Shown here: one piece after another, positions 56,198 to 58,700 of the stretch | Position numbering within the stretch: position 1 is the first letter of the stretch | How the letters are laid out: each line of letters begins with the position of its first letter | Assembly (NCBI RefSeq): GCF_003334315.1 | Contig: NZ_QOWR01000025.1 | Reading direction: 5' to 3' (one strand) | Length of the DNA stretch: 64,000 nucleotides | From: Escherichia coli | GTDB lineage: Bacteria > Pseudomonadota > Gammaproteobacteria > Enterobacterales > Enterobacteriaceae | Made by a program: the position numbers and the translations under genes | The notes under the pieces: model-generated | The model's input: only the letters and a program-made list of their open reading frames with translations | Database searches by the model: none | Told to the model about the DNA's origin: nothing

Positions 56198-58627
56198 TTA
56201 CGAATACTTTTTCGTCCGTCGCGTCGGTGCAGTATTTGCCGGGTCGTCCGGCCAGACATGTTTGGGATAACGCCCTTTCATCTCTTTTTGCACCTCACGG
56301 TACGCTCCTTTCCAGAAGGCGCTCAAATCTCGTGTGATTTGTAATGGCCTTTGGGCAGGTGAAAGCAACTCCAGCACCAGCGGCACGCGCCCCTGGGCGA
56401 TCGTCGGATTGGTGGCCTCGCCAAACATCTCTTGCATTCTCACCGCCAGCGCGGGCGGGTTATCTTCATGATAACGAATGGCGATCCGGCTTCCCGTCGG
56501 CACAGTGTAATGCGCAGGCAATTCACTATCCAGACGTTGCTGCATTCCCCAATCAAGTAATCCGCGTAGTGCCTGATAAATGTCGAGTGATTTCAGGCCG
56601 CGTAGTGAATGTACGCCAGTCATATGTGGCAGCAGCCACGTTTCCAGCGCTGCCAATAAACTTTCATCATCAACCGCTGGCCAGTCATATTCCGGCAACC
56701 ACTTTGCGGCGCATAACAAACGCAAGCGTAGCTGTTCCGCTTCCGCCGTCCAGTTGAGCACGCTTAAACCTTTATCACGGATGCCATTAAGCATCGCCTG
56801 ATGCAACTCGTCTTCTGACGGTTTCGCCAGCGGCTGCACTTTCACCGTCAACTGACCGATTTGTAGCCGACGCCAGGCTTTCAGCGTACCTTGCGCGTCA
56901 TCCCACTCCACAGTGTCAGACTGCTGTACCAGCTGCGGGCAGCGTTGTACTAACTCATCAATATCGACCAGCAGCGCCAGTAAAATCCGCGCATCCGGCG
57001 AGGCGCTGCCCTGCAATAATAACGGTGCGATCAACCATTCGTGGCGGCTTAGCGCGTCGTTGGCATCGAGCATCGCTCCCATGCCGTTTGCCAGTTGATA
57101 GCGTCCATCTTGCCCACGGCGACGAGCAATGCGATCGGCAAACGCCCCGGCAAGTAGCGGCGCGATAAGCGAACTGTCTGCCTCACCGCCACGTACGTTT
57201 AAGCGTTTTAACAGTTGCTGACTACGTTGCTGCCAGGCTGGTTGATTGCGCGAAAACGCCACGCCCAGGTCACTATTGCCCATCCGTGGCGGCTCTTCGA
57301 GAATGGCGGCAATTTTTGCCGCGGTAGCAGCTTCGTCGTCGTTCTTCGCGCTAACCAGCATTGCCGCTAAACGCGGATCGTTACCCAGCGCTGCCATTTT
57401 TTGCCCTTGCGCACTAAGCCGTTCACCCTCCAGTGCCCCCAGCATTTGTAACAGACGTTTCGCGGCCAGTAGATTCACTACTGGCGGTTGATCCAGCCAG
57501 CTCATCTGCGCCGGATCGCTGCATCCCCATTGCAGTAATTCCATCAGCAAACCGGAAAGATCGCTTTGTAAGATCTCCGGTTCACTTTGCGCCGCGGCGC
57601 GTTCTGCTTGTTCTTTGGCGATTAAATGCAGGCTGATACCCGGCTCCAGACGCCCGGCGCGCCCGGCACGCTGCGTCATGGATGCCTGGCTAACGCGTTG
57701 AGTAATCAGTCGCGTAAGCCCCGTGCGCGGATCAAAACGCGCCACACGCTCCTGGGCACAATCCACCACCAGACGAATACCTTCAATGGTTAAACTGGTT
57801 TCAGCAATATTGGTCGCCAGCACCACTTTGCGCATCCCTTGCGGTGCCGGGAGGATCGCTTTTCGCTGATCGTTCAGCGACAACGCGCCATACAGCGGGC
57901 AGAGCAATACATCACTGCCGATGCGCGAAGCCAGTTGTTCCTGCACACGCTGAATTTCTCCGACGCCAGGTAAAAATAACAGTAATGATCCGCTTTCCTG
58001 ACGCAGCATTTCAGCGGTGGCTACCGCAACGGCATCGTCAAAACGCTGATGCGCGGGCAGCGGTAAATAACGGCGTTCAACCGGAAACGAGCGCCCTTCT
58101 GAGATGACGACAGGCGCTTCTGGCAGCATTTGCTGCAAGCGGTCGTTGTCCAGGGTAGCCGACATAATCAGCAGTTTAAGGTCATCACGCAGACCTTGTT
58201 GCACATCGAGTAACAGCGCCAACGCCAAATCCGCCTGCAAGCTGCGCTCATGAAATTCATCAAGGATCACCAGTCCAACACCGCTCAGTTCCGGGTCACG
58301 CTGGATCATGCGCGTCAGCACGCCTTCGGTAACCACTTCCAGGCGGGTATTCGGCCCGACGCAGTTTTGCGCACGCATCCGGTAGCCAACGGTATCGCCT
58401 GGCTTTTCGTTAAGCAGCTCCGCCAGCCGTTGCGCGACGTTACGCGCCGCCAGACGACGCGGCTCCAGCAGGATAATTTTCCCGTTAATGCCGGGATGCG
58501 CCAGCAGTTGCAGCGGCAGCCAGGTTGATTTCCCGGCCCCGGTCGGCGCACTTAATAATACCTGCGGCGCACAATCGAGAGCGGTAAGTAATTCAGGTAA
58601 GACGGCAGCAACGGGCAACGACGACAC
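56198..58627 (-). CDS. hrpB: ATP-dependent RNA helicase HrpB (DEAH-box)
   Basis: ORF-track 56198..58672; 809 aa form begins at a GTG ((M)SSLPVAAVLPELL); motifs GAGKST and DEFH. Confidence 0.93.
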   Translation of the reverse strand: MSSLPVAAVLPELLTALDCAPQVLLSAPTGAGKSTWLPLQLLAHPGINGKIILLEPRRLAARNVAQRLAELLNEKPGDTVGYRMRAQNCVGPNTRLEVVTEGVLTRMIQRDPELSGVGLVILDEFHERSLQADLALALLLDVQQGLRDDLKLLIMSATLDNDRLQQMLPEAPVVISEGRSFPVERRYLPLPAHQRFDDAVAVATAEMLRQESGSLLLFLPGVGEIQRVQEQLASRIGSDVLLCPLYGALSLNDQRKAILPAPQGMRKVVLATNIAETSLTIEGIRLVVDCAQERVARFDPRTGLTRLITQRVSQASMTQRAGRAGRLEPGISLHLIAKEQAERAAAQSEPEILQSDLSGLLMELLQWGCSDPAQMSWLDQPPVVNLLAAKRLLQMLGALEGERLSAQGQKMAALGNDPRLAAMLVSAKNDDEAATAAKIAAILEEPPRMGNSDLGVAFSRNQPAWQQRSQQLLKRLNVRGGEADSSLIAPLLAGAFADRIARRRGQDGRYQLANGMGAMLDANDALSRHEWLIAPLLLQGSASPDARILLALLVDIDELVQRCPQLVQQSDTVEWDDAQGTLKAWRRLQIGQLTVKVQPLAKPSEDELHQAMLNGIRDKGLSVLNWTAEAEQLRLRLLCAAKWLPEYDWPAVDDESLLAALETWLLPHMTGVHSLRGLKSLDIYQALRGLLDWGMQQRLDSELPAHYTVPTGSRIAIRYHEDNPPALAVRMQEMFGEATNPTIAQGRVPLVLELLSPAQRPLQITRDLSAFWKGAYREVQKEMKGRYPKHVWPDDPANTAPTRRTKKYS

Positions 58628-58700
58628 AAAACGCTCCAGAGGGTTAACATTCTTCGCGCCACATTGTAGCATCGCGGTAATTCATAACCGAGTGCCTCAC

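Follow-up and report, generated by a model that had tools for sequence, protein, structure and literature searches.

Probable GTG start of HrpB and compact bidirectional promoter of hrpB and thpR in Escherichia coli

The locus and its closest described counterparts

Bidirectional promoters have been defined by divergent transcription start sites (TSSs) located 7-25 bp apart, a spacing of 23 bp being among the preferred configurations (Warman et al., bioRxiv 10.1101/2020.01.31.928960). In the sigma-70 promoters of this class the -10 elements of opposite strands share base pairs. According to a follow-up study (NAR 2026, PMC12825309), small deviations in spacing occur when the -10 element and the TSS are separated by a distance other than 7 nt; competition of RNA polymerase at bidirectional promoters has been published in the same work.

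The closest described counterparts of the genes analyzed here are hrpB (b0148, NP_414690.4; PDB 6EUD and 6HEG) and thpR, also called ligT (b0147; PDB 4QAK and 5LDI), of E. coli K-12. Genes, start codon and spacer are the same, and both HrpB and ThpR are identical to the PDB chains over the aligned parts, with no material difference from K-12. The GTG start and the spacer (RefSeq), the TSSs (2012 and 2016) and the promoter class (2020-21) are already known. The hrpB/thpR pair is not named in the searched texts and supplements of the papers on bidirectional promoters.

The window, a stretch of 64,000 nucleotides of E. coli DNA, carries the locus in its chromosomal arrangement, with mrcB-hrpB encoded on the minus strand and, next to them, thpR-sfsA-dksA-gluQ-pcnB on the plus strand. 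Positions 58332..59332 correspond, on the opposite strand, to K-12 MG1655 161400..162400, from which they differ in one SNP only; this SNP, at 58814, falls in thpR and is synonymous or missense; the DNA of the control region is identical to K-12. Of 5,426 complete E. coli genomes, 5,425 have a match to a 501-bp probe over the hrpB/thpR junction, in every case with hrpB and thpR features. The two genes had been described in the first-pass annotation as divergent, with a shared spacer of 73 bp, and the coordinates confirm this, the spacer extending from 58628 to 58700 and the ATG of thpR being found at 58701. The RefSeq annotation of K-12 (thpR 161501..162031, hrpB 162105..164534) agrees, with a GTG start and a 73-bp spacer, and the same GTG-start layout is annotated in two other E. 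coli strains, one of which is only 90% identical in this region. The features of the locus are the following.

56198..58627, minus strand: hrpB coding sequence, 809 aa, GTG start at 58627..58625 (open reading frame, RefSeq, NF008662, start codon in 80 of 80 species)
58628..58672, minus strand: 15 in-frame codons, ATG to TTT, probably untranslated, 5'UTR and promoter DNA (TSS, frame breaks, no Shine-Dalgarno sequence)
58634..58637, minus strand: Shine-Dalgarno sequence GGAG, 6 nt ahead of the GTG (invariant columns of the 80-sequence alignment)
58628..58655, minus strand: hrpB 5'UTR, 28 nt, TSS at G58655 (Kim 2012 and Cappable-seq)
58663..58671, minus strand: predicted hrpB extended -10 element TGcTACAAT, hexamer at 58668..58663 and TG at 58671..58670 (TSS distance, conservation)
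58667..58672, plus strand: predicted thpR -10 hexamer TAGCAT (promoter scan, mapped TSS, conservation)
58644..58649, plus strand: predicted thpR -35 hexamer TTAACA, 17-bp spacer, within the hrpB 5'UTR (promoter scan)
58679..58700, plus strand: thpR 5'UTR, 22 nt, TSS at A58679 (Kim 2012)
58701..59231, plus strand: thpR coding sequence, 176 aa, RNA 2',3'-cyclic phosphodiesterase (NF011704, PDB identity, RefSeq)

Residues 1-176 of ThpR match positions 1-176 of the NF011704 profile (357 bits, cut-off 184), and the translation carries the two H-x-T/S motifs of 2H phosphoesterases, HLTLAF and HITLLR. The translation of hrpB features motif I of DExH-box (DEAH/RHA) helicases in APTGAGKST, and motif II in ILDEFHERS.

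The start codon of HrpB

The open reading frame 56198..58672 (minus strand) has 824 codons when counted from its ATG. The first-pass annotation had set the start of the 809-aa HrpB at the GTG 58627..58625, codon 16 of the frame, 15 codons being subtracted from 824, a choice borne out by the mapped TSS, by conservation in 80 species, by the NCBIfam profile and by the Shine-Dalgarno sequence. Alternatively, HrpB could start at ATG 58672, with a length of 824 aa and the GTG as an internal valine codon. The mechanical open reading frame has this ATG as its first start codon, the frame upstream of the GTG is open in 33 of 80 species, and the longer protein is annotated on 851 public contigs. Even with this start the two genes would not overlap head-to-head, as had been supposed, since a gap of 28 bp (58673..58700) would remain.

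Published transcript maps bear directly on the choice. In the supplement of Kim 2012 (PMC3415461) the TSS of hrpB is located at K-12 162077(+), with 92 reads and a 5'UTR of 28 nt, and that of ligT/thpR at K-12 162053(-), with 19 reads and a 5'UTR of 22 nt. The 162077(+) site was found again, independently of Kim 2012, among the K-12 plus-strand sites of Cappable-seq in 2016 (PMC4782308), the hrpB TSS being therefore taken here from two independent datasets and the thpR TSS from Kim 2012. Transferred to the window, K-12 162077 corresponds to 58655 (G, minus strand), and K-12 162053 to 58679 (A, plus strand). ATG 58672 precedes the hrpB TSS by 17 nt, and is thus missing from the mapped hrpB mRNA. 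The maps consequently place the start of the transcript, within 58600..58720, downstream of the ATG. Klebsiella pneumoniae shows an equivalent layout, with UTRs of 29 nt for hrpB and 22 nt for thpR (Kim 2012, PMC3415461). In the same supplement a second thpR TSS, with a 44-nt UTR, is listed for K. pneumoniae at NC_009648 171989, where the hrpB TSS of the opposite strand is also located; none is listed for E. coli.

The hrpB loci of 80 species of Enterobacterales, from Escherichia through Erwinia and Pantoea, were compared. The start position is occupied by GTG in 78 species and by TTG in two, and GGAG, 5-8 nt before the start codon, is invariant in the alignment. Conservation with a periodicity of 3 nt sets in only past the GTG. 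In the alignment, the stretch from the equivalent of the ATG to GGAG has indels of 1, 5 and 15 nt and a variable block. In 33 species, among which are all loci of Escherichia and Citrobacter, the ATG is in frame and the reading frame uninterrupted, while in the other 47 an in-frame stop or a shifted frame disqualifies the ATG. In Enterobacter cloacae, for example, codon -1 is TAA; in Klebsiella, Raoultella and Kluyvera the frame is stopped at codon -6. The number of open frames was counted by hand and cross-checked by pattern search: the exact E. coli spacing from ATG to GTG is found in 40 of the 80 loci, eight of which have in-frame stops, and one further locus (L048), with a variant hexamer, adds one. 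The sequence ATGCTACAATG is conserved at 90% or more over the 80 species, whether in frame with hrpB or not, which is the signature of a promoter element rather than of a codon. By contrast, the block between TACAATG and ATGTTAAC is variable and indel-bearing, and gives therefore no indication of selection on the 15 upstream codons.

Translation signals and family profiles point in the same direction. No purine-rich Shine-Dalgarno sequence, nor anything similar to one, precedes ATG 58672. The NCBIfam HrpB profile NF008662 (1505 bits, cut-off 1053) has its position 1 at residue 16 of the open reading frame, and TIGR01970 (HrpB; 1275 bits, cut-off 546) starts at residue 19, both profiles leaving residues 1-15 uncovered. 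The structures 6EUD and 6HEG correspond to the 809-aa form, though the constructs follow the annotation and do not provide independent evidence on the start. The searched supplements of a paper on tetracycline initiation profiling and of the TRAINSPOTTER N-terminomics work contain no hrpB entry that would report on the N-terminus. Folding of the hrpB leader revealed no stable structure (z = +1.7), and a Rfam search of 55900..59400 returned nothing in the control region. Sequestration of the Shine-Dalgarno sequence or a riboswitch-like leader had been considered as a form of control, and was rejected because the leader is unstructured.

The 824-aa reading is thus opposed by a TSS downstream of the ATG in two E. 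coli datasets, and likewise in K. pneumoniae, by the missing Shine-Dalgarno sequence, by the frame breaks and by the profiles, while the conservation of the ATG itself is explained by a role in two -10 elements (see below). As the product of the main transcript an 824-aa HrpB is effectively excluded, and as the true form of the protein it is extremely improbable. A mixed situation, in which HrpB is made mostly from the GTG and a minor 824-aa form is translated in Escherichia and Citrobacter from a longer, read-through transcript, is very improbable too. A TSS of about the same strength as that of hrpB was detected by Cappable-seq on the hrpB strand inside thpR, at K-12 161665(+) (PMC4782308), and the upstream frame is open in the two genera; against this, the RNA started there would, judging from an RNA 3' end at 161708, be an antisense species of only about 44 nt, the ATG lacks a Shine-Dalgarno sequence, and the 15 codons bear no sign of selection. 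It is very probable that HrpB is translated from GTG 58627, that ATG 58672 is promoter sequence, and that hrpB and thpR are served by a compact bidirectional promoter. Ribosomes would start on a 28-nt unstructured leader, guided by GGAG 6 nt upstream of the GTG, and the upstream ATG would work as promoter sequence and not as a start codon.

Overlapping promoters of hrpB and thpR

On the hrpB strand, 58672..58663 reads A-TG-C-TACAAT. The hexamer TACAAT is found 8 nt upstream of the mapped hrpB TSS, and the TG one base ahead of it makes up an extended -10 sequence, TGcTACAAT, which is both present and conserved. The sequence at the -35 position, TCGGTT, is a poor match (2/6) as read from the DNA, and the hrpB promoter would for this reason rely on the extended -10. 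On the plus strand, TAGCAT (58667..58672) occupies precisely -12..-7 relative to 58679, the mapped TSS of thpR, and was paired by the promoter scan with TTAACA (58644..58649) at a spacing of 17 bp. The thpR -35 hexamer occupies +7..+12 of the hrpB mRNA; conversely, the thpR 5'UTR contains the upstream region of hrpB. GTTAAC is kept in most loci of Enterobacteriaceae, but not in those of Erwinia and Pantoea.

The hexamers TAGCAT (plus strand) and TACAAT (minus strand) overlap by a palindromic TA at 58667-58668, residues -12/-11 of each pairing with residues -11/-12 of the other. The thpR -10 hexamer ends in CAT, which is complementary to the trinucleotide ATG, ATGCTA being the reverse complement of TAGCAT. 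The TG of the ATG would accordingly be the TG of the extended -10 element of hrpB, and the CAT of the opposite strand would end the -10 element of thpR. Judging from the alignment, the ATG is conserved as promoter sequence, through its predicted role in two overlapping -10 elements. TGNTAYAMT occurs twice in the window, vs. 4.6 occurrences expected, and thus shows no enrichment; by itself the motif is no proof, the argument being its position relative to the mapped TSSs together with its conservation.

The sequence CTCGGTWATGA (hrpB strand, approximately 58681..58692) is also conserved in most Enterobacteriaceae. It spans +2..+13 of the thpR mRNA and corresponds to the -35 position of hrpB, being a poor match to TTGACA. 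It may be part of the thpR leader and Shine-Dalgarno sequence, an upstream element of hrpB, or a site for a regulator.

The very short spacer had suggested that the two promoters overlap, and the mapped TSSs, at 58655 (minus strand) and 58679 (plus strand), are only 24 bp apart, inside the 7-25 bp range that defines bidirectional promoters. The pair resembles the sigma-70 promoters of Warman et al. in that the -10 elements of opposite strands share base pairs, and in its '23 bp' geometry. The spacing of 24 bp corresponds to the 23-bp configuration plus 1 nt, because the hrpB TSS is 8 and not 7 nt from the hexamer. It differs from the 18 bp that are modal in the class, and the hexamers share only the TA at -12/-11, as opposed to five positions. 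According to the mechanism proposed, hrpB and thpR would share a single compact sigma-70 promoter, bidirectional and with a back-to-back layout. RNA polymerase would bind in one orientation at a time, and transcription in the two directions would then compete.

The two promoters may instead be independent and merely adjacent, their spacing being a by-product of genome compaction with neither interference nor coupling. That the tight layout is not obligatory is indicated by Raoultella and Kosakonia, in which the spacer measures about 127-136 bp and both genes are retained. The footprint of RNA polymerase extends from about -55 to +20. With TSSs 24 bp apart and 2 bp in common, two open complexes would, given such footprints, not coexist; the majority of the 80 species moreover keep the layout, which is also seen in the K. 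pneumoniae TSS data, and competition of RNA polymerase at promoters of this kind is published (PMC12825309). Independence of the two promoters is on these grounds unlikely, though worth retaining as an explanation. A step beyond a shared promoter is the idea that the back-to-back arrangement has been conserved as a coupling device, the expression of the HrpB helicase and that of an operon for RNA end processing, thpR(-sfsA), being reciprocally linked across Enterobacterales. We consider this speculative and doubtful. If true, the coupling would hint at an undescribed functional partnership of HrpB and ThpR in RNA repair or turnover. The hrpB/thpR promoter would in any case be a natural example of the 23-bp configuration joining two genes of RNA metabolism, and could be used in tests of RNA polymerase competition.

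Promoter constraints would also account for an inconsistency of the databases. In public collections at least 1000 contigs carry the 809-aa HrpB, and 851 carry the 824-aa form (for example AEJ54805.1 and AMU80774.1). The situation is akin to the over-extended N-termini of 'longest ORF' gene calls, the first ATG being upstream of the true start and both forms circulating. Unlike the random upstream ATG of such calls, that of hrpB is conserved, probably as part of two -10 elements, and looks more credible. An ATG fixed in this way would explain the approximately 850 public contigs with an 824-aa HrpB. The relevance is small beyond annotation hygiene, a conserved upstream ATG being able to mislead gene calling by the longest frame.

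Neighbouring transcripts and expanded spacers

The TSS at K-12 161665(+), mentioned above, corresponds to window 59067 on the minus strand, antisense to thpR, and has a TAATAT upstream, at 59079..59074. The published RNA 3' end at K-12 161708 corresponds to window 59024. The two ends point to an antisense RNA inside thpR that is short, about 44 nt (59024..59067, minus strand).

At the other end of hrpB, the TSS of mrcB (K-12 164235+, window 56497, minus strand; Kim 2012 and Cappable-seq) falls within hrpB, in the 3' part of its coding sequence, so that the mrcB leader measures 495 nt. The hrpB-mrcB spacer, 56003..56197, contains G/C-rich palindromic repeats, the arms of which (56108-56134 and 56153-56179) are 81% complementary; CCCTCTCCCT/AGGGAGAGGG are found at 56101-56122. 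For the palindromic repeat downstream of hrpB, Rfam returned sub-threshold, miRNA-like matches only. A published RNA 3' end, K-12 164636, corresponds to window 56096, which is probably the terminator region of hrpB. The mrcB gene itself (53477..56002, minus strand) encodes a protein of 841 aa, vs. 844 aa in K-12, the differences being a QQP deletion in the Gln/Pro-rich C-terminal tail and the substitutions A2T and I782V. The mechanical open reading frame of mrcB begins five codons further upstream, at a TTG.

The expanded thpR-hrpB spacers, of about 127-136 bp, were found in Raoultella terrigena, Kosakonia sp. S29 and few others (L030:1374-1500; L036:~1365-1500; L035, L041). In two of these loci, L036 and L041, a second copy of ATGCTACA adjoins thpR, and hrpB still has a GTACAAT of its own, which gives the impression that an insertion or a duplication had divided the shared promoter.
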